Source: Nitrospirota bacterium (lineage in GTDB: Bacteria > Nitrospirota > UBA9217). From it: a stretch of 64,000 nucleotides of DNA. Positions 3,649 through 25,220 of this stretch are shown here, one piece after another. The position numbers and the translations under genes were made by a program. Within the stretch, counting starts at the first letter, position 1, and the number at the start of each line of letters is the position of its first letter. The notes beneath the pieces are model-generated. The model searched no databases. It was given only the letters and a program-made list of their open reading frames with translations, and had not been told where the DNA came from. Location of the stretch: NCBI GenBank assembly GCA_963663225.1, contig OY760142.1, positions 195,913 through 259,912 on the forward strand, written 5' to 3'.

Positions 3649-3689
3649 GCATGTAAGCATAAATAGCGGTGCGGCGCGTGCACGCGTCG

Positions 3690-4913: not shown

Positions 4914-4930
4914 CTGACGCTCCTTAACAG

Positions 4931-5710: not shown

Positions 5711-5711
5711 G

Positions 5712-6572
5712 CTATATTCCTGCCTTTTCGCGGTGTTTTTGCAAAATGTCCGTTATTGTCCCGAACCTGCTCAACTGCAGAAGTCCGGCCACTTTTTCCT
5801 CAAATCCGGCACGTCCGATTCCCTGATGCAGTCTGCGAGTGACGGGAACATGCTTCATCATCTCTTGCCATTCCAGCGGGTTAAATTCATACGGATGGCA
5901 GTAAATAACAAAGGGCATATTTTCTTCTTCAATCCGTTTCAGACATCGCTTCAAAAACCAGGCCGGAAACAAACGAAAATATCCGCCTCCTCCTATCGGG
6001 ATACGAAGACCTGCGGGCCGCTTCAACTGGAGGACAGTGACCGGCAGTTCTTCCAGAGGTCCTTCCGGAGTCTCAATCCTGCTGTATCCCCGTGCAAAAC
6101 CTTCTATGCCGTAGCGAGGGGTTTTTAAAGGGAAAATGGACGAATCAAATTTAATACCGCACTCAACCATGACATCAAACGCCCAGAAGTTATCCTTGTC
6201 GATAGAAAAATCAGGAGCACGGAATCCGGTTACCGGTTTTCCGATAATGTCTTCAATCAGTTTGCCTGTCTCCGTTAATTCCTGTTTAAATGCTTTCGGC
6301 GTAAGACTGTAGACCGGTCGATGAGAATACCCGTGCGACTGGACTTCATGGCCGTTCGTACAAATCTCTTTGATCAACTCTGGATACTGTTTCGCAACCA
6401 TCCCCTGGACGAAAAATGTGCCCTTTACATTCAAACGTTCAAGAAAGCCAAGAACATGCCGTGTGTTCCGGACGCAAAGTTCACTGATGGGCGCGTCAAA
6501 GTTGTAAGAAGACTGGTACCAGTCTTCAACATCCACAGAAAAGGCGTGAATACTATTGTTTGCCATATTCAT
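5712..6572 (-). CDS. polysaccharide deacetylase-family protein (DVEDW-type, as in PEP-CTERM-locus deacetylases; possibly a deformylase)
   Basis: 286 aa ORF starting MNMANNSIHAFSVDVEDWYQS, with His-rich catalytic region (HEVQSHGYSHRP). Assignment to the PEP-CTERM-locus subfamily is from recalled motifs only. Confidence 0.7.
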   Translation of the reverse strand: MNMANNSIHAFSVDVEDWYQSSYNFDAPISELCVRNTRHVLGFLERLNVKGTFFVQGMVAKQYPELIKEICTNGHEVQSHGYSHRPVYSLTPKAFKQELTETGKLIEDIIGKPVTGFRAPDFSIDKDNFWAFDVMVECGIKFDSSIFPLKTPRYGIEGFARGYSRIETPEGPLEELPVTVLQLKRPAGLRIPIGGGGYFRLFPAWFLKRCLKRIEEENMPFVIYCHPYEFNPLEWQEMMKHVPVTRRLHQGIGRAGFEEKVAGLLQLSRFGTITDILQKHREKAGI

Positions 6573-7609
6573 TATCTGCTGAGTGATTCGAACCAGCTTG
6601 ATTTGAAATTGAGGAATCGGTTAGCCAACCCAAACAGAAAGCCTGTTCCGAAACCCGTATGAATGCAGAAGATGGAGGCGGCAATGCCGGACCAAAATTT
6701 CATCTCGTGTTTCAGGGCGATTCTCAGGGCTTCCGCTGCAAGTGCAACCAGATAACCGCCTGTGTACAGAAAAAAGCATGCGGCCGCATAGTTGCTGAAC
6801 AGTCCAACACACCCCAGTACGCCGAATCCGGCTACAAGCAGCGCTGGCATGTAATGGCGCCATGAGGCCTGCCGGGGATGCTTTTCCAACACAAATACTT
6901 TCCAATAACCGTATTGCAAAAACTGTTTGAACAGCTGTTTGAACGTTTTTCTAGGAAAATACTGGATCTTGATTCTGCCTGATTGAATGACTTTGCCTCC
7001 ATTCTTTCTCAAACGGAACGATAACTCATCATCCTGATTCCTGATCATGCGTTCGTCATACAAGCCGACTTCAATGAGGCGGCTTTTTTTGAAACAGCCG
7101 CCGTATACCGCATCGGTCTCGCCGATGAAATCTCCCCGATCACGCAAGGCGCCTCCCATGGCTATGGGACTTTTATATGCAAGCGCAATGCTTTGCTGCG
7201 TGTAGGTAACGCCTGCCGGCACCAGCACACCACCGGCATTATCGGCACCGGTCTGCTCCATGAGGCCAATCAGTTCCGTTAAATAGTTTTTCGGATGAAC
7301 GCACCGTACGTCTGCGCGCACAATATATTCCCCCCGAGCCTGCATGATTCCGAGATTCATGCCGTGTGGAACCGTTTTCTGCGGGTTGTCCAGAACGGTC
7401 AGCCCAGGGTATTTAGTCTGAAGCGTTGTATACATATCCCTGGTTCCATCCGTGCTCATGCCGTCAATGACAATAACTTCAAAACCGTCGGCTGGTGCGT
7501 CAAAACCATAAATGTTATCCAGACAGCTTTCAATATGTCCGGCTTCGTTCCTGCAGGGAATCAGGACTGAAGCTTTCAATTTTTGTCCGACGCTGTTTTT
7601 CATGTTCAT
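6572..7609 (-). CDS. glycosyltransferase family 2 with C-terminal transmembrane helices (polyisoprenyl-phosphate glycosyltransferase-like, ArnC/DPM1/GtrB type)
   Basis: 345 aa ORF; N-terminal GT2 region LIPCRNEAGHIE...VIVIDGMSTDGT and about two hydrophobic helices at the C-terminus. Confidence 0.75.
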   Translation of the reverse strand: MNMKNSVGQKLKASVLIPCRNEAGHIESCLDNIYGFDAPADGFEVIVIDGMSTDGTRDMYTTLQTKYPGLTVLDNPQKTVPHGMNLGIMQARGEYIVRADVRCVHPKNYLTELIGLMEQTGADNAGGVLVPAGVTYTQQSIALAYKSPIAMGGALRDRGDFIGETDAVYGGCFKKSRLIEVGLYDERMIRNQDDELSFRLRKNGGKVIQSGRIKIQYFPRKTFKQLFKQFLQYGYWKVFVLEKHPRQASWRHYMPALLVAGFGVLGCVGLFSNYAAACFFLYTGGYLVALAAEALRIALKHEMKFWSGIAASIFCIHTGFGTGFLFGLANRFLNFKSSWFESLSR

Positions 7610-7643
7610 AGCCTGTTCATTCGTCCGTGATACAGCTTGCCGC

Positions 7644-8945
7644 TTAATGGAACTCGTATGCTCCCATATCGAAACCAGTTCCTTGAGGCCGCTTCACGCC
7701 GTCTTTATCCGTCATAACATCCGGCAACGCTACACCTTTATTGATCGCTGCGGAATTCTGCTGAAGGTGGAAATTTTCCTGCCGCGGGTTTATAAACCGC
7801 GGATCGCCGGTCACCGGAGACGTATCCGTCAATTTCAGCAGTTTTACCGGCTTGGGCCAGTACAGGTTGTTCGCGATCCTGATAGTCGAATTTCCTTTTT
7901 CGTTTTTTACATGCTGCGTACTCGCTGTCGAGCCGTCAGCGTTCGACAAGTCGAATATATTATTCTGCACGACGACGTTGTTTATATCCCGTTCGGTTCC
8001 ATAAATCGACAGCGCCGCCCCTCCATTGCCGAAAATAGTATTATTGAAAATTTTTACGTTTGACACAACACCCGGAACATAGATGCCGCTGTGGGGATTG
8101 TTAAAAAGGATATTGTTTCTGATAATAACGTTTTCAATTCTTGCGTGATCATATGCCGCAAGGATGATTCCCGACCGCTGCAGAGAATTGGCGACAATAT
8201 TCCCTTCTATCACAACATCTTTTATCAGCCGCTCAAAACCCGGCTTGTCGCCACCGCGCCGCTGGTCAAAGACATGAATTCCATAGCCGCTCATTCCGCG
8301 AGCTGTGTTGTTTTTTATTTTAATGTTTGTACCGTGGCTGATATAGTAGCAATGACCCTGGGTTCCTACGCTGCTTGCTTTGATATCGCAGACATTCCCT
8401 TCAAGAAGAATATTATTGCCGCTCACACCGATCGCATCCCATGAATATCCGGCTCCTGAAAAATTATTATTTACCAGCTGTATCGTGGTACGGTTGATCC
8501 CGCCCGCACCGATTGACTTTCCGTTTTTAAAATGCAGCCCTTCAATACGGATATAGTCGCATTCGATGATAAAGGGCCTTTGACTGTTCACAAAAACAGG
8601 CGTCTCGTGCGGATACGCTTTTATCGTCACCAACTTTCCGGGTGCGCCGCAGTGGCCGTATTCCGCCCGAAGCCATACTTCACTTTCCTGATAGGTTCCG
8701 CCGCGAACAAGCACGGTGTCTCCCGGCCGCGCTTTTCGCGCCGCGTATTCCACGCTGCCCCAGGGACTGCTCTGAGACCCGCTGTTTCTGTCAGATCCGC
8801 TTGATGATACATAATAGGTGTCTCCCGCGCCGATTGCGGAGACAGGAATCATGGTCAGAATGAGTATAAAAAGAAAAAAACAATATAAGACGGGTTTATA
8901 CACGTTTCCTCCTTGGGATCTCAAGCATCGCTTTGCCGGTGACAA
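7644..8945 (-). CDS. right-handed parallel beta-helix repeat protein with N-terminal TM/signal segment; putative secreted glycanase or polysaccharide lyase
   Basis: 433 aa ORF with repeated PbH1-like turns (VVIEGNIVANS, VIIRNNILFNN, VKIFNNTIFGNGG, VVVQNNIFDLSN, IRIANNLYW). Start uncertain: the ORF overlaps the upstream gene by about 50 nt. Confidence 0.6.
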   Translation of the reverse strand: MSPAKRCLRSQGGNVYKPVLYCFFLFILILTMIPVSAIGAGDTYYVSSSGSDRNSGSQSSPWGSVEYAARKARPGDTVLVRGGTYQESEVWLRAEYGHCGAPGKLVTIKAYPHETPVFVNSQRPFIIECDYIRIEGLHFKNGKSIGAGGINRTTIQLVNNNFSGAGYSWDAIGVSGNNILLEGNVCDIKASSVGTQGHCYYISHGTNIKIKNNTARGMSGYGIHVFDQRRGGDKPGFERLIKDVVIEGNIVANSLQRSGIILAAYDHARIENVIIRNNILFNNPHSGIYVPGVVSNVKIFNNTIFGNGGAALSIYGTERDINNVVVQNNIFDLSNADGSTASTQHVKNEKGNSTIRIANNLYWPKPVKLLKLTDTSPVTGDPRFINPRQENFHLQQNSAAINKGVALPDVMTDKDGVKRPQGTGFDMGAYEFH

Positions 8946-10266
8946 CAGGAACTGAATTTTCGACCTGAGTGGCTTGCTGTTTCGCAGATTTCATTAACAG
9001 AATTCCTCTGTCGGTCAGTCCCCAAAAAACCCAAAAATACGTCCCCATTTCATAATAGGAAAAGCGATCGCCAAAAACATTTGTAATAGCATGCGCTATA
9101 GCGCACCCGATAAAACCGAGCCCGAGACCGCGTTGAAATTGGCTTGTGCCGCCTCTGAACAACTTCCAGCCGCTTCTGAGCGCACCCAAGAAAATGAGCA
9201 GCAATAAGAACGTGCCGATAAGGCCTTGCTCGCACAGAGTCTTTAAATAGAAGTTATGCGTGTCGGACCAGTGTTCGCTGATATGCGCCACGGTAAAGCC
9301 TTTGAACCCGCTCCCGAAAATCGGATATTCATGGAACATGTCCATTGCTGAGTTCCAGAGCATCAGACGTGCCGCTGCGGAAGACTCCAGCTCACCGGTT
9401 CCGCTTTCGGTCATCTGTATACGTTCAACGACTGAAGTCGGCAACACGACCTGCCACAGCAGAACAAGAATCACTACCGCGACTAAGAGACGCCTGTCCT
9501 TCAGAAGGCCATAAACCGCCAACACGCTAAAAGCAGCAAGGTATGCTCCTCGGGAAAACGTAAAAAAGAGCGGATGGAGTGAAAAAATCAATGCCGCCAG
9601 ATACAGCCATTTTCTTTTCCGATCCTTGTCCAGAAGGAAAAGGCCCAGAATAAATGAAAAACAATAGGCGATAAACGCGCCGTAGTGGTTCGAGCCGAGC
9701 CCGGCTACCCAGAAAGGACCCGCGTCCCTGCTTTCATCGACAAAAGACGCGCCTGCAGTAAAATTCCTGAAGCTTTTTACAGCGACGTACAAGACCACCA
9801 GGGTCATGATGACAACCAGTTGTTTCTGTTGTTTTTCGTCCTTGATTGCGCTCACGGTCAGAAAGTAGGTGAAGATCATTACGCAATAACTTTTCCAGAT
9901 CACGAGAACCTGGCTTTCCCGCGTTATGGGTGTGGGAAGGCCGAAATTCAGGCTGACATTCCATACCGAAATATAGCTGACGATAAGGAAAATCAGCACG
10001 ATAACGGAATTATCGGATTTTGAAAAACCTTTTTTATTCACGAAAATGCCGATAAATACTGCAATGATCAGCATGTCGATGAAATCCTTGCCGTACGGAA
10101 AGCTATACAGCTTGTGGTACACGTTCGGCTGCGGTATCAGGGCGACTGCCAGATACAGCGCCCATTCCGCTTTTTTTGCGATGCTGATAATCGCGGTGAT
10201 AATTCCGCCGAAATAAAGCGTGTTGACTAATATCCAACTGATGATTGGTCGTAAAAAAGCTATCAT
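8896..10266 (-). CDS. O-antigen ligase/polymerase-family membrane protein (Wzy_C-like); possibly the exosortase-associated O-glycosylation ligase type
   Basis: 456 aa polytopic membrane ORF with Wzy_C-like motif LHPLFFTFSRGAYLAAF and a large loop containing EHWSDTHNFYLKTLCEQG. Confidence 0.7.
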   Translation of the reverse strand: MIAFLRPIISWILVNTLYFGGIITAIISIAKKAEWALYLAVALIPQPNVYHKLYSFPYGKDFIDMLIIAVFIGIFVNKKGFSKSDNSVIVLIFLIVSYISVWNVSLNFGLPTPITRESQVLVIWKSYCVMIFTYFLTVSAIKDEKQQKQLVVIMTLVVLYVAVKSFRNFTAGASFVDESRDAGPFWVAGLGSNHYGAFIAYCFSFILGLFLLDKDRKRKWLYLAALIFSLHPLFFTFSRGAYLAAFSVLAVYGLLKDRRLLVAVVILVLLWQVVLPTSVVERIQMTESGTGELESSAAARLMLWNSAMDMFHEYPIFGSGFKGFTVAHISEHWSDTHNFYLKTLCEQGLIGTFLLLLIFLGALRSGWKLFRGGTSQFQRGLGLGFIGCAIAHAITNVFGDRFSYYEMGTYFWVFWGLTDRGILLMKSAKQQATQVENSVPVVTGKAMLEIPRRKRV

Positions 10267-10324
10267 ATATTATGCCTGTTGTTTGCCTTGAGCATATAGC
10301 ACCGGTAAATACCGATTGCCGGAA

Positions 10325-11785
10325 TCAAGCCCAGTTTAAACTTCTTTTCAATTTTTCTCTTAGTTCATTTTCTTTATACAACGTTCCGATGCAAATAATG
10401 ATGACTCCTGCAAGGACCTTGACGATAAGGCTTATCCAGACAGTTGCGATGTGGATTTGCAGAACGATAAGGAACATGACGCTTGACAGAGCGAGGTAAT
10501 AAATTAATTTATTAAACTCCAGATTGATGCGCAGATATTTCCTCGACTGAAATGCTCCGAGGAATGTCGCGAGCGAACATGCCGTCAAATTTGCAATAGC
10601 GGCGCCGGTGGTACCGTAGGAGGGAAGCAGCAGTATATTCATGGTAATATTGACGGCAACGGCAAACAGCATAATGCCGAGCATGGTCATTGTTCGTTTT
10701 GCCAAATAGAGGCCGGCGTTGAACAGGCTCCCCATCGCAAATATCATGTAGCCGACAAGGATAACCGGTGAAAAGAAAGCCGCAGCTGCGTATTTTTCAG
10801 AAGCCAGCGTGATAAACAGGTCTTTGGAAACCGCAATATATCCGAAGCAAATGGGTATAAAAGCTATCAGAAGATAATGCATGCTCTTCTGTAAAAAAAC
10901 CTCTGTCTTTTCCTTGCCCTCCTTATTGTAAACCTCCAGATAAATCGGGACAATCGCATAGGATATGGAAAACGTAATAATGTTTGCTATATACATGGCA
11001 AGATTATATCCAACGGCATACAGGCCGAGCATGGCCTCTCCGTGATAAGCAACAATAAGATAACGGTCGGCATAGGACAATGCCAGAAAAGCGCATTCGC
11101 TGAAGAGCAGCGGAAGTCCGAATTTTATCAATCTTTTTGCGAGGTCGCCGGATACCCTTCCCAACTGTACGGGAAACGTTCTAAAAAACCAGGTGAATAA
11201 GACAACGCCGGCCACAAACTCAGAGATTACCACACCGATGAAATATCCGTATAATTCATGAACGACGAACAACAAGAGAAAAAGCGAGAGACCTATGGAC
11301 AGCGCTTTTTCGCATACATTAAGCGCGTTCATGAAAATTGTCTTGCCTTTAACTCGCATGAAATTCATCGCTATAATGTTTAGCGGGCGGATAAACAGAT
11401 AAGCAGCCATAACGCCAAAACAGGTAAGATATGTGGTGTCAATATTGATAAAATGTCTAAGAACGGGAAGAGTCAGCAGATACAGCACGACTGTGACGAC
11501 TGCGAACACAAGGCCTCTGATAAGGACCGTCGTGGAGAATACCGTTAAAGTCTCGGTATCTGAGCTGTTTTCTCCATACAATCTGATAATCCCGTCTGAC
11601 AAGCCGGCTTTGCTGACGGCCACGGCAATAAGCATCGTTGTGGTCACCAATCCCAGAATCCCGTACTGTTCTTTCGTAAGCACCCTTGTTAATATAGGAA
11701 ACGAGATGAAACTGAGCAGCTGTGCCATGCCCATACCGGTAATAAAGTGACTGAATTGTGTAAAAAATTTTCTGACAGCTGACAT
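10325..11785 (-). CDS. oligosaccharide flippase (Wzx/MOP superfamily polysaccharide biosynthesis protein)
   Basis: 486 aa ORF, hydrophobic throughout with about 12-14 predicted helices; N-terminus typical of Wzx flippases. Confidence 0.75.
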   Translation of the reverse strand: MSAVRKFFTQFSHFITGMGMAQLLSFISFPILTRVLTKEQYGILGLVTTTMLIAVAVSKAGLSDGIIRLYGENSSDTETLTVFSTTVLIRGLVFAVVTVVLYLLTLPVLRHFINIDTTYLTCFGVMAAYLFIRPLNIIAMNFMRVKGKTIFMNALNVCEKALSIGLSLFLLLFVVHELYGYFIGVVISEFVAGVVLFTWFFRTFPVQLGRVSGDLAKRLIKFGLPLLFSECAFLALSYADRYLIVAYHGEAMLGLYAVGYNLAMYIANIITFSISYAIVPIYLEVYNKEGKEKTEVFLQKSMHYLLIAFIPICFGYIAVSKDLFITLASEKYAAAAFFSPVILVGYMIFAMGSLFNAGLYLAKRTMTMLGIMLFAVAVNITMNILLLPSYGTTGAAIANLTACSLATFLGAFQSRKYLRINLEFNKLIYYLALSSVMFLIVLQIHIATVWISLIVKVLAGVIIICIGTLYKENELREKLKRSLNWA

Positions 11786-11840: not shown

Positions 11841-12878
11841 TTAAAAACCGGTCAACTTTAGTGCAAAGTACCCTTTTGAGAATCCTCCATGAAGAGACAA
11901 GCTCGAGGCTTCCCACATATTAATCCTTTTTAATGAAAAAGTATCCGAAAGATCATTGACACCTATTTCCGTTGTAACGGCGTATTCATATCCTGCTTCC
12001 TGAACCGCCTTCTTGAGCGCAGAATCGATATTTCCGCATGGATACGAAAAGCTGTTTACCTGCTGCCGGGTGTTCTCTTCTATAATCTGTTTTGAATCAT
12101 ACAGTTCATGTTTCAACTGTATTTTGTCTATCATGGTCGGGTTGTCATGACTGCAGGTGTGAGAGCCGAATTGACCATGATCATGCATCGACGCGATCTG
12201 ATTCCAGCTCATTATAGGATTGCTACTTTTTAATTTTTCGTGGTCTGTCTGCAACTTTTCGTGGAGTATTTTGAGAAGTGAATCTACTTTTTTTGAATCC
12301 CACTCATTAACTCTGGCAAAGAAACCAGACGGGTTTTTCTCAAATTCCTCGAACAACATTGCTACTTCAGAGTTTGTCCGCTGTATAAGTGTCTCTTTGC
12401 TGCCCCATTGCTGCATCTGAATAAGGTAATAATACAATTGATCCCACCAGAACGGATTCTCATCTTTGCTACCGATTTTATCGGCAGTGAGAAAGAATGT
12501 CGCGGTCAAATCCAGTTTTTTAAGCACTGGGTAGGCATTCCGATAGTTATCTTCATAACCGTCGTCAAAGGTAATAATCAGCGAGTTGGAAGGTAACTTA
12601 TTGCCGGGATAATTTTTTTTTAAATCCTGGAACGAAAGAACAGTATACCATTTCTTAATAAAGCGTAGTTGATTCTCAAAACTCTCTACTGTTGTAAACA
12701 GATATGGCAGCGACGCGTCAAGTTTACTGAGCGATTGGCCAGTCACCCTGTGATAGGTTATGATGGTAAGCCGATTACCGGCAATATTGTTCAGAAAACG
12801 GACAAAATGAAATAATCCGGTGTATAGATATAGCAAACCAACGGCTCTTCGAACAGTTTGTTTTATTTTAGTAACCAC
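11841..12878 (-). CDS. membrane-anchored polysaccharide deacetylase (NodB domain)
   Basis: 345 aa ORF; N-terminal TM helix, NodB motif LIITFDDGYEDNY and His motifs (HTCSHDNP). Confidence 0.7.
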   Translation of the reverse strand: MVTKIKQTVRRAVGLLYLYTGLFHFVRFLNNIAGNRLTIITYHRVTGQSLSKLDASLPYLFTTVESFENQLRFIKKWYTVLSFQDLKKNYPGNKLPSNSLIITFDDGYEDNYRNAYPVLKKLDLTATFFLTADKIGSKDENPFWWDQLYYYLIQMQQWGSKETLIQRTNSEVAMLFEEFEKNPSGFFARVNEWDSKKVDSLLKILHEKLQTDHEKLKSSNPIMSWNQIASMHDHGQFGSHTCSHDNPTMIDKIQLKHELYDSKQIIEENTRQQVNSFSYPCGNIDSALKKAVQEAGYEYAVTTEIGVNDLSDTFSLKRINMWEASSLSLHGGFSKGYFALKLTGF

Positions 12879-12919: not shown

Positions 12920-13996
12920 TTAATGATTTCCCCAGGATAACAACATTCTTTTTAATGAGACAAGCATTTTTATCGCATTAAAAGGAAACACTGAGCACAA
13001 GCGGTAAAACCAGAAGGTGTTATCACAGTACGGATTGTTTATCGATTTAATCACCTTCCAGATTGCTTCCGCTTCATACCGCATGCCTTTTTTTAGATAC
13101 TCTTTGTATAAAAGCACAAGCAACCTTTTGTATTCTCTTTCAATCTCTTCTATTGCGGGTCTGTTCGGACTTTGCGATGGGAAATATATTTTTTTACAAA
13201 TATCGATATGATACCGCAATTTTGTAAGATATTCGACCTGCGTAAGACGATTACCGGCATGACTTCTGTTGCCCGCTGTGGCAATATCCATAAAAATAAG
13301 ATCACAATCCTGCGTCAAATGGGCCATAAGCCAGTAATCTTCCCATGTCAAATAACCTTCCGAAAATCGAATCTTCTTCTCAAAACATTCTCTTTTTGCC
13401 AGAAGTGTCCAAGCACTAATATAGTTATTTTTTAATTCTGCAGAAAATAGATTTCCTGCATATATGTCAAAAGAATCGTTATTATAGGTTATCCCAAAAT
13501 CCCTAGAGCTGTATTGTTTCGAATATACATCTGACCAAGTGCGAATACTTCCTTTTTCCCCCATACCCACCCAGGTATGCAAACCATTATTCGAAATAAT
13601 CCCCGTCTTATCAAATATGTAAAAATCTGAATGCACCGCTTTATAGGTAGGAAAAGCCCGCAACACGTTAAATTGCAATGACAGCTTAAATGGCATCCAT
13701 ATATCGTCAGAATCTAAAAAGGCGAGCCATTCGTTCTGCGCCTCCTGGATTCCACGGTTTCTTGCTGCGCCTGCACCGGCATTTTGCTGGCAAATATATT
13801 TTATTTTACTGCCGAAGCCCAGCACAACTTCCCGCGTATTGTCTGTTGATCCATCATCAACAACAATAATTTCAATATCGCAATTGTGGATATCCTGATC
13901 GAGCACGCTTCGGATTGACTCGGCGATTAAACCAGCACGATTAAAAGTAGGAATTATTACAGATACAGACGGGAACTCAGTCATATTATTAACCAT
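12920..13996 (-). CDS. glycosyltransferase family 2
   Basis: 358 aa ORF; GT2 N-terminus VSVIIPTFNRAGLIAESIRSVLDQ...IEIIVVDDGSTDNT. Confidence 0.75.
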   Translation of the reverse strand: MVNNMTEFPSVSVIIPTFNRAGLIAESIRSVLDQDIHNCDIEIIVVDDGSTDNTREVVLGFGSKIKYICQQNAGAGAARNRGIQEAQNEWLAFLDSDDIWMPFKLSLQFNVLRAFPTYKAVHSDFYIFDKTGIISNNGLHTWVGMGEKGSIRTWSDVYSKQYSSRDFGITYNNDSFDIYAGNLFSAELKNNYISAWTLLAKRECFEKKIRFSEGYLTWEDYWLMAHLTQDCDLIFMDIATAGNRSHAGNRLTQVEYLTKLRYHIDICKKIYFPSQSPNRPAIEEIEREYKRLLVLLYKEYLKKGMRYEAEAIWKVIKSINNPYCDNTFWFYRLCSVFPFNAIKMLVSLKRMLLSWGNH

Positions 13997-15116
13997 GGGT
14001 GGTCAACTTAAACAATTTTTTCGCGAAATCTTTTATACTGAAAATAGACTGTAATAATTGTCCTTTATAACTTTTATTAAATGCACATACTATGACATGT
14101 TTTCTCTCGTTTTCCTTCGCCCATATTCGCTTCCATGTCATGGAGGGTCCGAGAAAATCAAATTCAGTTATGTTACGCTTGAAGACGGCATCAAATTGCA
14201 TCCATTTAAGCGTGTTGCCTACTCCGAATTCATGGTATGTTTCGTCAAATTCAGTTTTTAAATCATACAAGGTGTTTTCATACAGCAGACAAAAGTCAAA
14301 AACAACGGGTGTATTTCCGGCATAAAGAATATAAAGCTCCAACCATGCTTCCCGTGCAGCGGTATACGCCAAGTCACGGTAAAAAGATTTTAGTAATGGT
14401 GTCGAAGAAAGAGCCGTGCCCTCCCTGGCTTTCCAGCTTTTTGCAGCAATTGTGAATACATCATCAAGTGCTTTATCCAACTCAGATGAGTCCTTATAGG
14501 AGATAAGTTTTACAGGACCGTTTTCCTCTAGTTTTTTAAACCTGCTGTTCAAACCTCTCTTAAATCGTGGCTGAAGGTTCTTAATATAGTCATCCCAGCA
14601 GTTCGTTATGGGTATATACGGCGTCGACATTTGAAAATACTGTTTGCAGGAAATGTCTTTTTTCTTCAAAGACGCTAAAAAGTGCTTTTTAGCAGGTGAA
14701 TCGTCGTAAAAATACTCAAGATTCAGTAAATCCCATGTTTCGCCATATTCATTCAGCAAGCATGAGACTATAACATCGCATGCTTGTTCTGGCTTATCAC
14801 TTAATATTAGATCTGCTCTGTTTGAATGAACATTTGCTATAAATTCAATTTTGTTTGCGTTCAGTGTTGTGTTTGTTTTGCCAATGACAGTATATGGTCC
14901 TTGGTTGAACATAAAAGGAGCTATCGCAATAAGTTCGTTTTTATCATATACAAGTATGATAAAGAGCTTATTTTCGGACCGGAAGGCTCTCCACCATGCA
15001 TCCATCCATTCGTGAGTTAGAAAAACAAAGGGGTGAAGACTTCGTTTTAGCAAGTTGTTCCAAGCATTCTTAATCTCCAAAAAATCTTCATATGTATTTA
15101 TGACGTGAACCTTCAT
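13989..15116 (-). CDS. FemAB-like / GNAT-fold acyltransferase (CelD/BioF2-like), paralog 1 of 3
   Basis: 375 aa ORF. Shares N-terminal W-rich motif (THEWMDAWWRAF) and C-terminal EFDFLGPS-type motif with the next two genes. Confidence 0.6.
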   Translation of the reverse strand: MKVHVINTYEDFLEIKNAWNNLLKRSLHPFVFLTHEWMDAWWRAFRSENKLFIILVYDKNELIAIAPFMFNQGPYTVIGKTNTTLNANKIEFIANVHSNRADLILSDKPEQACDVIVSCLLNEYGETWDLLNLEYFYDDSPAKKHFLASLKKKDISCKQYFQMSTPYIPITNCWDDYIKNLQPRFKRGLNSRFKKLEENGPVKLISYKDSSELDKALDDVFTIAAKSWKAREGTALSSTPLLKSFYRDLAYTAAREAWLELYILYAGNTPVVFDFCLLYENTLYDLKTEFDETYHEFGVGNTLKWMQFDAVFKRNITEFDFLGPSMTWKRIWAKENERKHVIVCAFNKSYKGQLLQSIFSIKDFAKKLFKLTTHG

Positions 15117-15127
15117 TTCATGGTATT

Positions 15128-16273
15128 TCAGGATTTTTTGGCGATATATGCAGTCTGGCTGGGCAAACCGGCACTTCTAAATAGTTTTTTTGCTGAGCAT
15201 TTTATACGATATAAAATATTCGAGAGCGTACCATTTATTGTTTTGTTATAAAGAGTAACCGTAAACAAAGGACGGCCATCTTTGGTCCAGCCGCTTTTAT
15301 ATTCCTCGCTTCCCTGTAAGAAGTTATACTCTGTATTGCCGTTTTGAAAGGCTTCTTTGATTGCCTCAAATACAATAGCTTTGCCCGGTCCAAACCGCTC
15401 CCATTTTACGTCCATTCCCTTCTGATAGGAAAATATGCGTCCTTGATAGTTAAAATTATAAGAAGCGGCAATGACGTCTTTTTTGTTTCGCAAAAACCTC
15501 ATGGAAATCCAACCGGAGTTGTTTATGCGTTTTGACAAAGCCTTGTGGAATTCGAGAATCGCGGCATCATTAAAGGTGCTGCGGATTTTTTTTCTACTGG
15601 ATCTGCTCGCATGAATAGCAAACAAGGTATCAAATGCTTCAGGTTCGGCCAGCGGGTCACACGATTCATATGAGAAGCCCTGCGCTTCCAGTTTCTTTTT
15701 TCTGCTTTTCAGGTTGTATCTTTGTTTGGAATCAAGGGTATTTACAAAATCTTCAAAGCTGCCGTGCAACGGAATAAAGTAAGCGTAGGAATCCTGCCGG
15801 ATATTGTAACAGAGGCCGTTCCTGTAATCAGCGCGGTCCTGTTTAGTCCATGAAATAAAGTTGCTGCCCTCAGCAAACAGTCGCAAATCAAGAACGTCCC
15901 ATTCTCTATATTCAGAATACAGGAAATTACAGAGTGCTTCGATGCATGCTTTCGCGTTTTCTTTTGATGCAATAACATCAAGATGGTCAGGATACAGCTC
16001 CCTGCAGCCGCAATAGGTTAATACACGGCCGACAGTACATTCTCTGTTCAAACAAATATTATACGAAGCAAGCGGGAGTATGCCTTTAAGTTCGGAATCC
16101 TCATACACAAATAAAATGAGAGGCATATAGCTTTCACCAAACTGTTCCCACCAGGTATATATCCATTCCCAGGTGCAGAAGATTGATGGAATCGGCATCG
16201 AAGCCGCCAAACAGTTCCAGGCGTCCCTGCTGTTTTCGAATTCCTTCTCAGTTGCGATCTTTACTGTATACAT
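15128..16273 (-). CDS. FemAB-like / GNAT-fold acyltransferase, paralog 2 of 3
   Basis: 381 aa ORF; CTWEWIYTWWEQF N-terminal motif and EYNFLQGSEEYKSGW C-terminal motif, collinear with paralogs 1 and 3. Confidence 0.6.
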   Translation of the reverse strand: MYTVKIATEKEFENSRDAWNCLAASMPIPSIFCTWEWIYTWWEQFGESYMPLILFVYEDSELKGILPLASYNICLNRECTVGRVLTYCGCRELYPDHLDVIASKENAKACIEALCNFLYSEYREWDVLDLRLFAEGSNFISWTKQDRADYRNGLCYNIRQDSYAYFIPLHGSFEDFVNTLDSKQRYNLKSRKKKLEAQGFSYESCDPLAEPEAFDTLFAIHASRSSRKKIRSTFNDAAILEFHKALSKRINNSGWISMRFLRNKKDVIAASYNFNYQGRIFSYQKGMDVKWERFGPGKAIVFEAIKEAFQNGNTEYNFLQGSEEYKSGWTKDGRPLFTVTLYNKTINGTLSNILYRIKCSAKKLFRSAGLPSQTAYIAKKS

Positions 16274-17414
16274 TTTTTATCAGTTTCTTGCCCGGTTTAA
16301 TGACCCGTTGTGACAGGTAATGTACCGCCCTATTGGAGACGTTATTTTTCTTAATAAAAAGCGAGAAATTAAACCGAGTATTGTTTGCCCAGAAGTATTT
16401 ATATTTTTCATCGCCCCGGAGAAAATCAAACTCAGAACATCTCTCGGAAAAAGCTTTTTCGATCATCAGGGATAACAGAACCGTGCCCGCACTTTTTTCT
16501 TCCCCGTGCGCGGACAGTCCTGTTTGGTAATAGTAGTATTTGTTGTTGTACTTTATACAATAATAAAAAGCCTGATAAACCGACTCCTTCAGGAGAAAGG
16601 CAATAATTATTTTGTTTTCATTCAGTAAGTAGCCAACCAAGGATTCGTGGAAACTATAGACCTTGTCTCCTCTGAAGGCAGTCGGATAATTTTTTCTTTT
16701 TGCACGTTCCGCATGAAGCAAGAATAAAGTCTTCAGGTAGTGCTGCAGATTACCGGATTGGCTGTCCAGAATGCGGCATTTCCAGTTTTCCTTTTCCAGC
16801 AGATTTTTTTTCTTGCGCAGAAGTGTATTGCGTGTTTTTCCTGAAAAAGAACCGAGAAAGTCCTCAAAAGTTTTATCGATAGTCAGATAGGGGCAACGAG
16901 AGTCCGCGTTGCATTCAATGAGTAATTTTAGGAGCCCGTTTCGATGATCCGAAAGATACTTTTTTATGCAGGAGTTTTCATGCACGCCTTCCAGTGTTAT
17001 TTCATCCCATTCCATCTCATGCGTCTGTAGATAATCAAATACCAGCTTCGGGAAAAGGTGTTCAACTCTTCTATCGCAAAGAATGTCGAGATGATCGGGA
17101 GCAGTCTCGGAAGAGGAGCAGAATTTGACTGTATTGCGTCGGACACCGAAATATCTTTTTTTCTCGATATAAAACGGCGCAATCCCGACTAGTTGCCCTT
17201 GTGTGTCATAACCACAGACAATAAGTAGTTCTTTCTTTTCGTTTTTAAACGTATTCCACCAGGAAAACATCCACTCCCAAGACAAAAAGAATTCATTCGT
17301 AACGCTTCTGTTCAGGAGTTCGTTCCATTGTTCCCGCAGAAAAGTAAAATCTTTTTCCGAGAGCCGTTTTATAAAAAGAGATTTCACTTCTATGTCTGAC
17401 TTCGTTGTTATCAT
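16248..17414 (-). CDS. FemAB-like / GNAT-fold acyltransferase, paralog 3 of 3
   Basis: 388 aa ORF; LSWEWMFSWWNTF and EFDFLRGDEKYKYFW motifs. Overlaps paralog 2 by 26 nt. Confidence 0.6.
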   Translation of the reverse strand: MITTKSDIEVKSLFIKRLSEKDFTFLREQWNELLNRSVTNEFFLSWEWMFSWWNTFKNEKKELLIVCGYDTQGQLVGIAPFYIEKKRYFGVRRNTVKFCSSSETAPDHLDILCDRRVEHLFPKLVFDYLQTHEMEWDEITLEGVHENSCIKKYLSDHRNGLLKLLIECNADSRCPYLTIDKTFEDFLGSFSGKTRNTLLRKKKNLLEKENWKCRILDSQSGNLQHYLKTLFLLHAERAKRKNYPTAFRGDKVYSFHESLVGYLLNENKIIIAFLLKESVYQAFYYCIKYNNKYYYYQTGLSAHGEEKSAGTVLLSLMIEKAFSERCSEFDFLRGDEKYKYFWANNTRFNFSLFIKKNNVSNRAVHYLSQRVIKPGKKLIKNVYSKDRN

Positions 17415-17454: not shown

Positions 17455-18609
17455 TCAGTTTTCTCTGGTGAGAATTACCTGTTTAAAGATTGTCTCATAA
17501 TTTTCTATCATATGTTCCAGGCTGAATTTTTCTTCCACCCTTTTTTTTGCGGCCGTGCTGAACTGTTGCGCCGTTATCGGATCATCCAAGATGGACCAGA
17601 TGGCTTCCGCCAGCGCGTGGGAATCTCCGGGCGGGACCAAAAAACCCGTCTCACCCTGGACAACTGCTTCGGCATTGCCGCCGACCGTTGTTGCCACTAC
17701 CGGCTTGGAAGAAGCCATGTATTCCAAAATCGTGTTTGAAAAACCTTCACTTAATGAAGCCACAACGGCAACATCGAATATGGAAATTATTTCCGGAACA
17801 TCTCTGCGCCTTCCCAGAAAATGCACATTCCGGGAAACACCAAGTTTTTCGGCCATTGTCTGCATACTGCTGATTGAATAACCCATGTCAGTTGTATCAC
17901 TGCCGGCGATGAGAAACTCAACATCGGATCTTCTTTTGCAAATACGCGAAGCGGCCTCAATGAGATACGTAATGCCTTTTATGCGGCGAAGATTTGCGAC
18001 GAGTCCCACTACCGGATGAGCAGGGTCAATACCGATTTCTTTTTTAATATCTGAGCACGTTCTGCGGCACGTATTGTATTCCCGCAAATCAACTCCATTG
18101 TAAATCGAAACTATCCGTTTTTCAGGAAACCAGCCTTGTTTAACTATCTCCTGTTTGACTGCATCGCATACGGTTATCTCCCGATCAAAAAAACCACCGA
18201 TAAGTTTGTACGCCATCTTATGATGCGAGCGCGTTTTGAAGCCCATGTCTCTTCTGCTTGAAATAACCGGAATATTGCATGCTTTAGCAAGGATTAAGCC
18301 GTAAAAATCTGAAGTTTCGTGATACGTTACGATGAGCGAAATATTCTTATTTTTAATCAACCTGCGCAGAAAAAAGATATTTTTTATCCCATTGACAGTA
18401 TAGATCCCACCCCGCAAAAGGTCAAAGACTGAGTGGCCTTCTTCGCGCATTTCCTGAGCAAGCTGGCCGGAATAGATGCAAGCCATGTAAAGATTAAATT
18501 TCTCTTTATCAATACCTTTTAGCAGCTGTGTAATATTGCGTTCAGATCCCGCCATTCCCATGAACGTGTCAGTCAGGATCAGCACATTATATTTATTTGT
18601 CATTTCCAT
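17455..18609 (-). CDS. glycosyltransferase family 4
   Basis: 384 aa ORF; VVASLSEGFSNTILEYMASSKPVVATTVGGNAEAV GT4 signature. Confidence 0.8.
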   Translation of the reverse strand: MEMTNKYNVLILTDTFMGMAGSERNITQLLKGIDKEKFNLYMACIYSGQLAQEMREEGHSVFDLLRGGIYTVNGIKNIFFLRRLIKNKNISLIVTYHETSDFYGLILAKACNIPVISSRRDMGFKTRSHHKMAYKLIGGFFDREITVCDAVKQEIVKQGWFPEKRIVSIYNGVDLREYNTCRRTCSDIKKEIGIDPAHPVVGLVANLRRIKGITYLIEAASRICKRRSDVEFLIAGSDTTDMGYSISSMQTMAEKLGVSRNVHFLGRRRDVPEIISIFDVAVVASLSEGFSNTILEYMASSKPVVATTVGGNAEAVVQGETGFLVPPGDSHALAEAIWSILDDPITAQQFSTAAKKRVEEKFSLEHMIENYETIFKQVILTREN

Positions 18610-19361: not shown

Positions 19362-20459
19362 CTATTTAACGTCGCAACGGAAATTTCCCGAATAATCCAC
19401 GCTACCATTTTTGGCGAGTACCACGAGGTTCATTTTTCTAAAACTCGGCACTAAACCCAGCGGTGCATAATCTTCAAAATTCAGATATGTTGCATTTTCA
19501 AATACTACTCCCTTCGCGTTCATCTCTTCCGCACGTTTTACGGCTTCATACAGGAGTGCTGCTATATGCGGCATGCTGCATTCTTTAAAAGGATTTACAA
19601 TCAGGAAGTCGACAACAATAAAAAATTGTGTTTTGCTTTCCTTGATCGTTTCTAACGGATAAAAATTTATAAAAGCGTTTATTTCACCATCGCGTTCTAC
19701 TACAAAAGTTCTGTGCGTGGGATGGCCAAAACAGTAGTGTTTGAGCTGATCTTCCGCCATGGTCAGCATAAAATGCGGTGCATCGGGAATTTTATTAAAC
19801 AATTGCGTCAACTGTCCGGCATCAGCTTCTTCTGCAATTCTTATTCTGGCAGAACCGGGCAACGGAGAATTGTCTTGCAGGTATTTTTTCAAACGTGCGG
19901 GCATGACTACACACTGGTTGAATGTTGAATAAGTTTTTCGCTTCACCTGAAAATATTTTGCCGACAGTTTATCACCTATGCTTTTTAATGGCTTTCCTTC
20001 TTCAATATAGGCAAATGTCGCGCTGCAGTCGGGCTCATAGAAATCTGCATCAGGGTGAAATAAATGAGTATGTTCGGCCAACTGCATTACACAATCCATC
20101 CTGTGGCGTAAATCAAGCCGGGGAGAAACTGCAAGGTGGGTGTTTAAATATGAATTCATTACATTCCCATTACAGATCATTTTTCTAGGGAGAAAACTCT
20201 GAAAGGCCACTAATTCATCATCAAGGAACGCTCCAAGAAGTATGTTTTTGTCAGTATTGGGTCCTCCATACAACCACAGTAAATAGTCCTGGGGAAATAC
20301 CGGGCTTCCTGTTTTGCCGTACAATTGGCTCCAGATAGAATTCAAAAATGTGCCTATTTTCTGCATTTCTTGCAATGAAAGACGCGAAAATTTCAGCAAT
20401 CGTTCATGCCGCAGCAATTTTATAAAAGAAGTAAGTGGTTGTCCGTTTTTAATTTGCAT
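19362..20459 (-). CDS. hypothetical protein (possible GNAT-like acyltransferase fold; function unknown)
   Basis: 365 aa ORF in operon context with no overlap conflicts. I recognise no diagnostic motif; the segment LLGAFLDDELVAFQSF is only weakly GNAT-like. Confidence 0.45.
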   Translation of the reverse strand: MQIKNGQPLTSFIKLLRHERLLKFSRLSLQEMQKIGTFLNSIWSQLYGKTGSPVFPQDYLLWLYGGPNTDKNILLGAFLDDELVAFQSFLPRKMICNGNVMNSYLNTHLAVSPRLDLRHRMDCVMQLAEHTHLFHPDADFYEPDCSATFAYIEEGKPLKSIGDKLSAKYFQVKRKTYSTFNQCVVMPARLKKYLQDNSPLPGSARIRIAEEADAGQLTQLFNKIPDAPHFMLTMAEDQLKHYCFGHPTHRTFVVERDGEINAFINFYPLETIKESKTQFFIVVDFLIVNPFKECSMPHIAALLYEAVKRAEEMNAKGVVFENATYLNFEDYAPLGLVPSFRKMNLVVLAKNGSVDYSGNFRCDVK

Positions 20460-20509: not shown

Positions 20510-22138
20510 CTATTTGTCCGACGTTCCGTAAACGCTGCTGAGCAGCGCTCTGTCTATTTTCTTGCTTTTATTTTTGGGAAGCTGTTCGAGTCTGACAAGA
20601 TGCTGCGGGATCATATATCGGGGCAGGCTCTTTTTCAGGTTGTGGTGAATCTCTTCATGGCAGTCCGCGGCCGCCTCGTAAACAAGTTTGAGTGACTTAA
20701 TTTCACCGTTTTCCCGGACCGGGATGACAACATTACCCGTCACTGAATCAACTTTTGAAACAACTCTCTCGATTTCCTGCAAATTGATTCGATATCCGAA
20801 AAATTTGATCTGACTGTCCTTGCGGCCATGGATGCAGTAGCCGACCCCGGGAATAAAAGACGCGACATCCCCGGTCCTGTAAAACGGCACCCCGTGCTCA
20901 TCCCTTCCAAAAACCTTGTTCGTTTTGTCAGGATCATTCCAATATCCGATAGACAAATGAGGAGAATGGACGATGAGCTCTCCTCGCTCTTCATTTTCCG
21001 GGAAGTCGGTTTTGTCAAGCGTGAAACGGATTCCCATGATCGGGAAACCGATGGGAACGGCGCCTCCGTCCTCGCCCTTGTAATCGTTCAGCGAGAAAAC
21101 AGCCATCAGTGACGATTCAGTAGATCCATAGCCGTTGATAAACTTTGCGTTGGGCAGCATGGCCATCACAGTTGCCAAAATATTCCGGTTGGCGGGTTCT
21201 CCGCCGAGCAAAACAGTTTTTAGCCCCTGAAGATGCTCCGGCTTGATCAGACCGCTGTTTACGAGAGCGTTCAGCGTCGAGGTGACCAGCAGCGTTCTGG
21301 TGACTTTGTACGTATATGTAAGGTCCAGAATGTCCTTCGGAAAAATTACTTCTTCTGGGTAAACAGCAAGTGTTCCACCTGAACACAGCGGTGGAAATAT
21401 GTCAGCGGTTGAGGCGGAGAATGCGGTTGCATTCAGCCCACTGGTCACGTCATCCACGTTATAACCCAGGGTATCGATCACCCACTGGACATTCTTGAAA
21501 ATATTGCCGTGGGGAATCATGACGCCTTTCGGCTCGCCGGTGGAGCCTGACGTGAAATAAATCATCGCCAGATCATTCGGCAAAAGGTCTACTTTTTGTG
21601 GATCATCCCGCCGCGCGCTTCCGAACGGCAATTTGACGAAATCGCGTTCTTCGCCATCGTCAAGCAGAACGGCCTGAAAACGCCCTGGAGATAGTTCCGC
21701 ACATTTTCTGAACAGGTCAGCTGAAAAGCGGTCGGCAAAAACGCGAAGCGGCGATATTTCAATCAATAAATCAGTCAGTCTGGCCGGCGGTGTTTTGGTG
21801 TCCAGAGGAACAACGACTCCTCCCGCTCTTATGATGCCGATCATGGCGGCATACAGATAGATTGACCTGTTCATCATGAGTGCGACACGATCGCCTTTTT
21901 TCAGACCACTCTCCTGCAGATACTGTGAAACATCGAGAGTCAGTTCGCGCAGTTCATGATAGGTCCATGCTTTGTCATACAGCCGTATCGCGGCTTTTGA
22001 TGCGTGCAAAGCAAACATCTTATCGAGCAGATCCATGATGGTAGAAACGGCTGATTGATTTTCTGCTTGTTTCTGGTTTATCGCGGTGTTTTTTTCCATG
22101 GGATTCTTTTTGACAATTGCATTGTCCTGAAGTTCCAT
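20510..22138 (-). CDS. adenylate-forming enzyme (AMP-dependent synthetase/ligase, acyl- or aminoacyl-activating), ligase 1
   Basis: Start placed at internal ATG (MELQDNAIV) 2 nt after the upstream stop. AMP-binding motifs YFTSGSTGEPKGV, GYGSTE and YRTGD are present. Confidence 0.8.
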   Translation of the reverse strand: MELQDNAIVKKNPMEKNTAINQKQAENQSAVSTIMDLLDKMFALHASKAAIRLYDKAWTYHELRELTLDVSQYLQESGLKKGDRVALMMNRSIYLYAAMIGIIRAGGVVVPLDTKTPPARLTDLLIEISPLRVFADRFSADLFRKCAELSPGRFQAVLLDDGEERDFVKLPFGSARRDDPQKVDLLPNDLAMIYFTSGSTGEPKGVMIPHGNIFKNVQWVIDTLGYNVDDVTSGLNATAFSASTADIFPPLCSGGTLAVYPEEVIFPKDILDLTYTYKVTRTLLVTSTLNALVNSGLIKPEHLQGLKTVLLGGEPANRNILATVMAMLPNAKFINGYGSTESSLMAVFSLNDYKGEDGGAVPIGFPIMGIRFTLDKTDFPENEERGELIVHSPHLSIGYWNDPDKTNKVFGRDEHGVPFYRTGDVASFIPGVGYCIHGRKDSQIKFFGYRINLQEIERVVSKVDSVTGNVVIPVRENGEIKSLKLVYEAAADCHEEIHHNLKKSLPRYMIPQHLVRLEQLPKNKSKKIDRALLSSVYGTSDK

Positions 22139-22142
22139 CGCT

Positions 22143-23354
22143 TTACACGACAATTTCAGCAGGCAGCGCGTGACTGAGAAAATGAAGCGGGCTTGCTGAA
22201 AAACCATATGCTCCTGAATTAAAGAAGAGGAGAACGTCGCCTTCCTCGATGTCGGCAGCCAGTTCAATATCAGTTGCCAATACATCGTCGGGAATGCAAA
22301 GGCTGCCGGTTATTGTGTACCTGATTTCAGCACCGGATTTTTCCTCTCCTGACAGTGTATCAATCTCGTAGTTACGCCGTATTACCTGTCCAATACCGCC
22401 GGCCGCCGCATAGTGTTGATGCATACCGCCGTCAACGACAAGAAATTCACGAGCGTAGCCCTTCTTGCGATACAACACGTGAACCGCGTAAAGCCCGCAT
22501 TCCGCCACCAGAAAGCGGCCTGGCTCGATGATGAACGTGGTGTTTCTGAGCGGAGCCGTAAGCTCTTCATCGGCAAAAAGTCTGGAGAGACCTTCCCTAA
22601 GCGCCGCAAGATCGAGCGGGGGTTTTTTCCCGAACATATCTATCCCCCAGCCGCCGCCAAAGTTTATTTTTTCGATGACAATTCCGTATTTGTTCGCAAT
22701 TTCGACGCTTTTTTCGAGAATAAAGCGATAATTGCTCAAAATCTTGTCTGATTCCTGATATTGTGAACCAAGATGCAGGTGCAGGCCCCGGAAGCGGAGC
22801 ATCTCCGGGTGGGATTTGATTACGGCAATGGCTTCCTCCAACTGGTCTTCAGGAATGCCGAACTGGGTATCTCCTCCCATCTTCATGGCTGAGGCCGCAG
22901 GACGCGTTTTGGGGTTTACCCTGATGCCCACGTTTCCGGCTTTCTTTTTTGCGCGGCAAAGTTTCGCTATCGTGTGTATTTCTGAAACGCTTTCAGCATT
23001 TATGCAGGAAACACCGGCATCGATCGCCTGCGATAATTCATCAAGGGTTTTTCCGGGACCGGTGAATTCTATGCTATCTGACGAAAATCCGGCAATCAGT
23101 GCCGCCGCGAGTTCCCCCCCCGAGGCCACGTCGGCACCCATGCCAAGTGCGTTCATTGTTCTTAAGATGTCATTATTGGGATTGGCCTTGAACGCATAAT
23201 GGATTTTGAAATGCTCTGGCAGACAATCTGACAGGTCACGATACTTTTTTTCAATGACCTTTTTAAAATAACAAAAAACCGGAAGCTTTCTCCCATCAAG
23301 AAAAGCGAGAAGTTCCGATTTTGGTATCAGCTTGTAAAATTCTTGCTTGTTCAT
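22143..23354 (-). CDS. PLP-dependent decarboxylase, Orn/DAP/Arg decarboxylase fold (diaminopimelate-decarboxylase-like)
   Basis: 403 aa ORF; HYAFKANPNNDILRTMNALGMGADVASGGEL and GLHLHLGSQ motifs. Confidence 0.8.
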   Translation of the reverse strand: MNKQEFYKLIPKSELLAFLDGRKLPVFCYFKKVIEKKYRDLSDCLPEHFKIHYAFKANPNNDILRTMNALGMGADVASGGELAAALIAGFSSDSIEFTGPGKTLDELSQAIDAGVSCINAESVSEIHTIAKLCRAKKKAGNVGIRVNPKTRPAASAMKMGGDTQFGIPEDQLEEAIAVIKSHPEMLRFRGLHLHLGSQYQESDKILSNYRFILEKSVEIANKYGIVIEKINFGGGWGIDMFGKKPPLDLAALREGLSRLFADEELTAPLRNTTFIIEPGRFLVAECGLYAVHVLYRKKGYAREFLVVDGGMHQHYAAAGGIGQVIRRNYEIDTLSGEEKSGAEIRYTITGSLCIPDDVLATDIELAADIEEGDVLLFFNSGAYGFSASPLHFLSHALPAEIVV

Positions 23355-24951: not shown

Positions 24952-25220
24952 GCTTCATCTCCCGCCAATTTCTTTTCAATAAAATACGATATTTTGCTTA
25001 TGGAGTCGAAATTGTCCAAAGAAAGTTCCGCCGGATAAAAAATAACGTCAAATTTCTCTGAAAAAGCCTCAATAATCTGGATTGCTCCGAGAGAGTCGAT
25101 TAGCCCGCTGTCGATCAGCGAATCCTCTTCACCAATACTAGTACCACTCCCATTGCCATCCTTTGCGGCAATCTCTGTTATTATTTGTTTAACCGCTCCT
25201 TTTATTTCTGCTAACTCCAT
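24948..25220 (-). CDS. acyl/peptidyl carrier protein (phosphopantetheine-binding)
   Basis: 90 aa ORF; carrier-protein serine motif GLIDSLGAIQIIE; GGGGGG RBS-like run 8-13 nt upstream of the ATG. Confidence 0.75.
   Translation of the reverse strand: MELAEIKGAVKQIITEIAAKDGNGSGTSIGEEDSLIDSGLIDSLGAIQIIEAFSEKFDVIFYPAELSLDNFDSISKISYFIEKKLAGDEA

Follow-up and report, generated by a model that had tools for sequence, protein, structure and literature searches.

Three anciently diverged FemX-like transferase paralogs in an exopolysaccharide locus of a Nitrospirota bacterium and their possible use of aminoacyl-tRNA

FemX, FemA and FemB (PF02388) build peptidoglycan cross-bridges in aminoacyl-tRNA-dependent reactions. 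Orf11, a FemX-like enzyme, N-glycylates an amino sugar from Gly-tRNA (PMC12945691); Orf11, Sba18 and Sbb17 perform the Gly-tRNA-dependent N-glycylation of streptothrisamine in BD-12 biosynthesis. In Caulobacter crescentus, HfsK (CC3689) is a FemX-like tandem GNAT that modifies the adhesive holdfast exopolysaccharide (EPS) and has the paralogs CC2278 and CC1244; it is tied to the cytoplasmic CE4 deacetylase HfsH and needs a short C-terminal extension for membrane association (PMC5362036). The kind of gene is thus known and routinely annotated, and FemAB-like GNATs have long been annotated in PEP-CTERM and other EPS loci. Here we analysed a 64,000-nucleotide stretch of DNA from a Nitrospirota bacterium (assembly GCA_963663225.1, contig OY760142.1, positions 195,913 to 259,912; hereafter the window), in which three adjacent genes, C, B and A, encode FemX-like transferases within an EPS locus. 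We propose, with a probability of about 0.5, that these proteins carry out cytoplasmic tRNA-dependent aminoacylation of a lipid-linked EPS repeat unit. New here are the array of three ancient clades with fixed partners, its separation from a nearby carrier cassette and the fusions of relatives to a tRNA-binding domain.

Among the described systems, A, B and C functionally most resemble HfsK. They share with it a FemX-like fold, an EPS and CE4 context and the presence of several paralogs, a likeness of fold and context and not one drawn from sequence comparison; their C-terminal helix is reminiscent of the HfsK extension. Unlike A, B and C, however, the HfsK paralogs are dispersed and not in tandem, and HfsK binds cyclic di-GMP (c-di-GMP). 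The window also resembles XrtA-type EPS loci in which a FemAB-like gene (TIGR03019) stands next to a polysaccharide deacetylase (PMC3684757), but it has three copies instead of one, and the deacetylase adjacent to them is not of the TIGR03006 type (that one lies at 5712-6572). Membership of A, B and C in TIGR03019 itself was rejected, as neither E<=0.01 nor the relaxed limit of E<=10 gave a match. CelD/BcsL (COG5653, 'acetyltransferase involved in cellulose biosynthesis') and Brucella BspF belong to the same Pfam family as A, B and C, PF13480; unlike the situation of CelD, no cellulose synthase is present in the window, and BspF differs in being a secreted effector that acts on host proteins. 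The window proteins show no significant sequence similarity to FemABX, have a shorter loop from the DFLG strand to the lysine and lack the FemA-type coiled-coil, and their genes lie in an EPS operon and not in a cell-wall context. Orf11, Sba18 and Sbb17 differ in serving a Streptomyces small-molecule pathway with a single shorter enzyme (about 286 residues solved) and no polysaccharide. MprF and other aminoacyl-phosphatidylglycerol synthases have a lipid-hydroxyl acceptor, a catalytic domain fused to a flippase and unrelated sequences.

The original prediction, made from the DNA sequence, described three tandem paralogs of about 380 aa at 13989-17414 with a common W-rich N-terminal motif and a common EFDFL-type C-terminal motif, and the open reading frame (ORF) positions, BLASTP and PF13480 matches bore this out. 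In near full-length BLASTP alignments, A and B are 26% identical (E=1e-32), A and C 25% (E=7e-24), and B and C 27% (E=3e-37). This similarity is far above chance, and A, B and C are full-length paralogs. The EW[MI]xxWW motif begins at residue 36 in A and B and at residue 47 in C, and the E[FY][DN]FL motif at residues 318, 315 and 328 of A, B and C, respectively. All three proteins score above the gathering cut-off (22 bits) of PF13480 (Acetyltransf_6) and cover profile positions 1-143. When a family hidden Markov model was run against the six-frame ORFs of the window, it matched A, B and C only, and no fourth paralog was found. The last 26 nt of C also belong to B, a gap of 11 nt separates B from A, and the end of A shares 8 nt with the gene that follows, encoding a GT2 glycosyltransferase, so that C, B, A and the GT2 gene are packed as one operon. 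The real start of C may lie a few codons downstream of the called one.

To date the duplications, we built a neighbour-joining tree of A, B and C, 18 PF13480 proteins encoded on related contigs (L numbers below) and 19 database homologs. Each copy fell into its own clade together with orthologs from other contigs at 44-63% identity, whereas the three copies are mutually 23-25% identical in the same comparison. The duplications therefore long predate this genome, which upholds the earlier view of old duplications over a recent repeat. Orthologs in the C clade (L007, L003, L008 and L011) are 46-63% identical to C, and those in the B clade (L006 and L007) 49-52% identical to B. At 3599-11143, L007 carries five PF13480 genes in a row, namely the C and B orthologs, two extra paralogs of one distant clade and the A ortholog, interspersed with an 81-aa ORF and a methyltransferase gene. 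In both L003 and L008, an A ortholog comes after a C ortholog, and L006 has three PF13480 genes including orthologs of A and B. A scan of genome contigs for near-identical relatives returned one metagenome-assembled genome (MAG) only. Comparison with the Nitrospiraceae MAG L005, whose proteins are mostly 87-97% identical over the region (93-96% in the comparison of the three paralogs), gave dN/dS values of 0.10 (C), 0.15 (B) and 0.13 (A), which indicate purifying selection on all three. As all family-invariant residues are also retained in the three proteins, these are working genes and not decaying repeats.

We then modelled A with AlphaFold2 from a 37-sequence alignment (mean pLDDT 94.9, pTM 0.91). 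The nearest solved structures to this model are Fem proteins, with a double-GNAT fold. Structural-comparison figures were highest for Staphylococcus aureus FemX (6snr, 21.8), Weissella FemX (4ii9, 21.6) and FemA (1lrz, 21.1), followed by the Gly-tRNA-dependent Sbb17 (9wqx, 19.3), the Lys-tRNA-dependent L-PGS (4v36, 17.5), 2hqy (of unknown function, 17.1) and the MprF entries 6lv0, 9j8q and 6lvf (16.2-17.0). The first tandem GNAT using acyl-coenzyme A (acyl-CoA) appeared at 14.4 (2wpw), and N-myristoyltransferase (NMT) at 12.2. Foldseek returned the identical order, with FemX at E=8.9e-13 and TM scores of 0.61-0.69, and acetyl-CoA tandem GNATs at 0.3-0.45. The FemAB-type double-GNAT fold that had been anticipated is thus the one predicted for A, and no fold inconsistent with it was obtained. 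We take C, B and A to be catalytically intact, anciently diverged double-GNAT enzymes of FemX fold. In sequence searches, B gave weak matches to FemAB_like and FemAB below their cut-offs, and two fusion proteins with B-like modules exceeded them (P0076, 29.0 versus 24 bits for PF02388; P0075, 31.3 versus 27 bits for PF04339, FemAB_like). A profile of A, B and C matched 28,216 cluster representatives (50% identity) at E<=1e-3, and 3,439 at E<=1e-30.

Just after the E[FY][DN]FL motif, the proteins carry an aromatic residue followed by lysine (WKRIW in A, YKSGW in B, YKYFW in C), 7-8 residues past the xDFLG strand. The lysine is invariant in all 37 sequences, and the matching place is occupied by FKKGY in FemA, FKKVW in FmhB and FKHVF in FemX(Wv). 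A lysine after an aromatic residue is the only reactive residue of this enzyme class (F304-K305 in FemX(Wv), F328-K329 in DhpH-C; PMC12945691). GNAT domain 2 opens with a basic helix, which in A spans residues 176-207 and contains eight K/R. A review places the contact with the tRNA acceptor stem on a positively charged helix of GNAT domain 2 (PMC12945691), to which the helix of A may correspond. The pI values of A, B and C are 8.3-9.2, none of the three has a transmembrane segment, and each ends in an amphipathic basic helix (H350-373 in the model) whose hydrophobic moment of 0.52-0.67 is at least at the 95th percentile of the protein's own values. Soluble, basic proteins with such a C-terminal helix would act in the cytoplasm at the inner face of the membrane, before flipping; this suggests that A, B and C act on a lipid- or nucleotide-linked repeat unit there.

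Relatives of the array are fused to a domain that bears directly on the donor. A orthologs P0011 and P0013-15 (47-50% identity; L003, L004 and L008) carry a C-terminal CysS_C domain (PF23493), the anticodon-binding domain of Cys-tRNA ligase, and the C relatives P0081 and P0092 (45-46% identity) carry the same domain, acquired independently. A linker of 65-86 residues precedes it. Four copies of the domain exceed the cut-off of 23 bits (34.9, 26.8, 26.3 and 25.8), two more fall slightly short of it, and the fused domain matches the extreme C-terminus of a solved CysRS at E=1.3e-8. Because a tethered anticodon reader makes sense only with tRNA as substrate, these fusions favour aminoacyl-tRNA as the donor. 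Furthermore, many of the best profile matches, about 750-810 aa long, contain two complete modules. P0075 consists of a C-like (47%) and then a B-like (54%) module, which mirrors the order of C and B, the overlapping genes of the window; P0076 combines two B-like modules, and P0077 a weakly A-like (25%) with a B-like (42%) module. Such fusions support cooperation between the paralogs, but fit a peptide ladder and the decoration of different sugars equally; the fixed glycosyltransferase partners described below lean slightly towards decoration of different sugars. Among other fusions, P0083 is joined to REC-GGDEF, a c-di-GMP link that recalls HfsK, and P0204 to a classical single GNAT.

The array lies in one large minus-strand EPS locus of XrtA/PEP-CTERM type that occupies about positions 1-42,700 of the window. 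Scaffold genes above cut-off encode the ATPase TIGR03015, exporter TIGR03027, chain-length determinant TIGR03007, tyrosine kinase TIGR03018 and outer-membrane protein TIGR03016; the locus also has an UpxY antiterminator, sugar-modifying genes, a Wzx-like flippase and a Wzy/O-antigen-ligase-like protein. The window showed no exosortase gene, and no mur or penicillin-binding protein genes were among the window ORFs scanned; the context is that of a Wzx/Wzy plus XrtA-type EPS operon and does not point to a peptidoglycan precursor as acceptor. Two genes downstream of A is a gene for a CE4 polysaccharide deacetylase with no transmembrane or signal-like stretch (maximum KD19 1.17). PF01522 genes occur within a few genes of PF13480 genes in the window and in L003, L006, L007, L009, L010 and L011, and the two families are fused in both orders (P0035 and P0148). 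The CE4 deacetylase is a constant partner of PF13480 genes, and the canonical XrtA locus has the same deacetylase-FemAB pairing (PMC3684757). The deacetylase would be the partner that exposes the amine acceptor. The glycosyltransferase neighbours are also conserved: a GT4 gene followed by a C-clade gene was found in four loci (the window, L005, L007 and L011), with P0104 being a GT4 fused to a C-like module, and an A-clade gene followed by a GT2 gene in four loci (the window, L005, L006 and L001). The coupling to a deacetylase and the fixed glycosyltransferase partners point to a NodB/NodA-like logic, in which a sugar of the growing repeat unit would first lose its N-acetyl group and the amine so exposed would receive a new acyl group at set stages of glycan assembly.

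Table 1. Positions in the window of the transferase array, its partner genes and the carrier cassette (20510-25220).
Feature	Position	Strand	Length	Remarks
Paralog C	16248-17414	minus	388 aa	first gene of the array; FemX-like double-GNAT transferase; PF13480 64.2 bits
Paralog B	15128-16273	minus	381 aa	FemX-like double-GNAT transferase; PF13480 81.2 bits
Paralog A	13989-15116	minus	375 aa	FemX-like double-GNAT transferase; PF13480 87.6 bits
GT2 glycosyltransferase	12920-13996	minus		immediately downstream of A; PF00535 E=1e-31
CE4 polysaccharide deacetylase	11841-12878	minus		two genes downstream of A; PF01522 E=6e-25
GT4 glycosyltransferase	17455-18609	minus		immediately upstream of C; PF00534 E=5e-40
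NMT-like tandem GNAT	19362-20459	minus	365 aa	the cassette's own transferase, outside the FemX-like array
DltA/NRPS-type (nonribosomal peptide synthetase-type) adenylation enzyme	20510-22285	minus		carrier cassette; NCBIfam/Pfam matches
TIGR03099-like pyridoxal phosphate (PLP) decarboxylase	22143-23354	minus		carrier cassette; NCBIfam/Pfam matches
TIGR03098-like ligase	23296-24951	minus		carrier cassette; NCBIfam/Pfam matches
Acyl carrier protein (ACP)	24948-25220	minus		carrier cassette; NCBIfam/Pfam matches

The structural ranking, the precedent and motif of Orf11, the basic helix and the CysS_C fusions together favour aminoacyl-tRNA as the donor. The analysis shows the paralogy, the fold, the operon context, the independence of the carrier cassette, the coupling to the deacetylase and the fusions; that the donor is aminoacyl-tRNA and the acceptor a sugar amine is inferred, as are the sequence in which the paralogs act and the amino acids they would transfer. 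The setting would be a Wzx/Wzy-type repeat unit in an XrtA/PEP-CTERM-type locus. The cytoplasmic CE4 deacetylase, or the sugar aminotransferase of the locus, would supply a free sugar amine. Each paralog would then move an aminoacyl group from aminoacyl-tRNA onto this amine or onto a previously added residue, with the aromatic-Lys motif (W328-K329 in A) playing the part that F304-K305 has in FemX. The outcome would be amino-acid decorations at different places, or a short peptide branch. More tentatively, C, B and A could form a Fem-like aminoacyl-tRNA-dependent assembly line that makes an amino-acid or short peptide branch on the EPS repeat unit.

Several observations weigh against tRNA-dependent aminoacylation. 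At the level of sequence, A alone found nothing at E<=1 among the sequences of solved structures, the family profile reached FemX in the PDB at a non-significant E=0.62, and hhalign aligned the family with FemA over 58 columns at 16% probability, in an alignment that stops at the strand. The FemAB model PF02388 (cut-off 24 bits) gave 15.3 bits for B and no match for A and C. The equivalence of the lysine to that of FemX is suggested by the local motif, not by a superposition. A, B and C of the window themselves have no CysS_C domain, and the window contains no tRNA genes. The literature searched yielded no biochemical donor assignment for EPS-associated PF13480 proteins, HfsK as the best-studied relative included (PMC5362036). 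HfsK has been discussed as a putative N-acyltransferase (PMC5362036), and A, B and C could likewise be acyl-CoA-dependent N-acyltransferases that re-acylate CE4-exposed sugar amines with acetyl or short acyl groups in a NodB/NodA-like manner, the copies differing in acyl group or sugar. This agrees with the labelling of the family as acetyltransferases by Pfam and source annotations ('CelD/BcsL family acetyltransferase' at JGI), with a weak match of A to the NCBIfam model of BspF, a distant family member labelled crotonyl transferase, and with a conserved glycine (G300) in the beta4-alpha3 loop, the site at which GNATs bind the pyrophosphate of CoA. In L010 (12167-16412), a Thermodesulfobacteriota MAG, genes for an HMG-CoA synthase and a MaoC dehydratase precede the single PF13480 gene, a hint that some family members may handle unusual acyl-CoA donors. 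The Q/RxxGxG/A loop, however, reads HEFGVG in A, ERFGPG in B (with the spacing off by one) and EEKSAG in C; neither C nor the family consensus has it complete, and only its last glycine is family-invariant. Moreover, the anticodon-binding domain was fused twice independently, and the locus already holds three hexapeptide acetyltransferases as well as the NMT-like acyltransferase for thioester donors. Acyl-CoA dependence is the main rival reading, less probable than dependence on aminoacyl-tRNA.

A further donor could come from the carrier cassette, which lies about 2 kb upstream in the same operon and to which the original prediction had functionally tied the three copies. A, B and C would draw an aminoacyl or acyl group from the carrier protein loaded by the ligase and adenylation enzymes, in a Dlt/Alm-like route; P0152, a distant relative in which a hexapeptide transferase and a PP-binding carrier domain are joined to two PF13480 modules, fits this route and is a further point against tRNA. 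The cassette was present in L005, L009, L010 and L011, and the NMT-like tandem GNAT always follows it. The NMT-type fold uses pantetheine thioester donors. In L007, by contrast, the GDSL ortholog directly neighbours the GT4 ortholog and the cassette is missing from between them, although C, B and A all have orthologs there. There was also no trace of the cassette in L006, where orthologs of A and B occur, nor in the sequenced parts of L003 and L008, and the PF13480 arrays of these loci are kept or even enlarged. The proposed tie between the three copies and the cassette was thus not supported, which leaves the original interpretation upheld in part, and we rejected the cassette as their donor supply, since it comes with its own NMT-like GNAT and the arrays are independent of it; a carrier-borne donor is improbable. 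Very improbable, too, is that the copies are largely redundant or that some are non-catalytic regulators or scaffolds, for instance in an HfsK-like, c-di-GMP-responsive membrane tethering. HfsK is a c-di-GMP effector whose two paralogs have minor phenotypes (PMC5362036), P0083 carries its REC-GGDEF fusion, and A, B and C all have amphipathic basic C-terminal helices. Nevertheless, the copies fall into distinct, conserved orthology clades whose neighbouring genes are kept as well (GT4 ahead of C, GT2 behind A), all three keep the invariant lysine and the other family-invariant residues, and each has a dN/dS within 0.10-0.15, features that are at odds with redundancy or decay.

If aminoacyl-tRNA is indeed the donor, translation substrates would feed matrix chemistry directly, and the charge, cross-linking and adhesion of biofilm polysaccharides would be affected in many phyla. 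HfsK controls the cohesion of the Caulobacter holdfast, and the literature searched shows no transferred group for such enzymes. The present locus makes the question of the donor testable, as it offers three clades with fixed glycosyltransferases, a constant deacetylase and natural fusions to a tRNA-binding domain; the same operon provides a contrast in the thioester-type NMT-like GNAT with its own carrier cassette. Should the assembly line exist, tRNA-dependent aminoacylation of surface glycans would be widespread, beyond peptidoglycan, lipids and a few antibiotics, and the array would be a single case from a huge and biochemically uncharted family of about 28,000 clusters at 50% identity.

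Further observations concern the cassette and the remainder of the locus. The NMT-like gene is 70% identical to its counterpart in L005 (4651-5748), while its neighbours are 87-97% identical, and dS is about 2.7 compared with 0.15-0.30 in the neighbours; this suggests an allelic replacement or recombination confined to the NMT-like gene. At 591 aa, the longest ORF for the adenylation enzyme reaches 143 nt into the decarboxylase gene. As its orthologs are 511-512 aa long, the real start is probably about 80 codons downstream. One of the hexapeptide acetyltransferase genes also lies upstream of the array, beside the cassette.

Elsewhere in the locus, the gene for a TIGR03006-like deacetylase (5712-6572, below cut-off) is followed by genes for a formyltransferase and a PseC/ArnB-like aminotransferase (4931-6572, minus strand). 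In canonical XrtA loci, unlike at 4931-6572, the FemAB-like TIGR03019 gene comes after the TIGR03006-type deacetylase. A HemK/PrmC-type glutamine-N5 methyltransferase is encoded at 30433-31305 (minus strand; 208 bits versus the PrmC equivalog cut-off of 199) between a TIGR03098-like ligase and a WbuX-like amidotransferase, inside the EPS operon, where a release-factor methyltransferase would not be expected. At 26616-28700 (minus strand), a 694-aa protein with weak matches to a GH123 N-terminal domain is glycoside-hydrolase-like inside a biosynthetic operon; L006, L009 and L011 have it too, at 49-57% identity and in the corresponding place ahead of the hexapeptide, GDSL and cassette genes.

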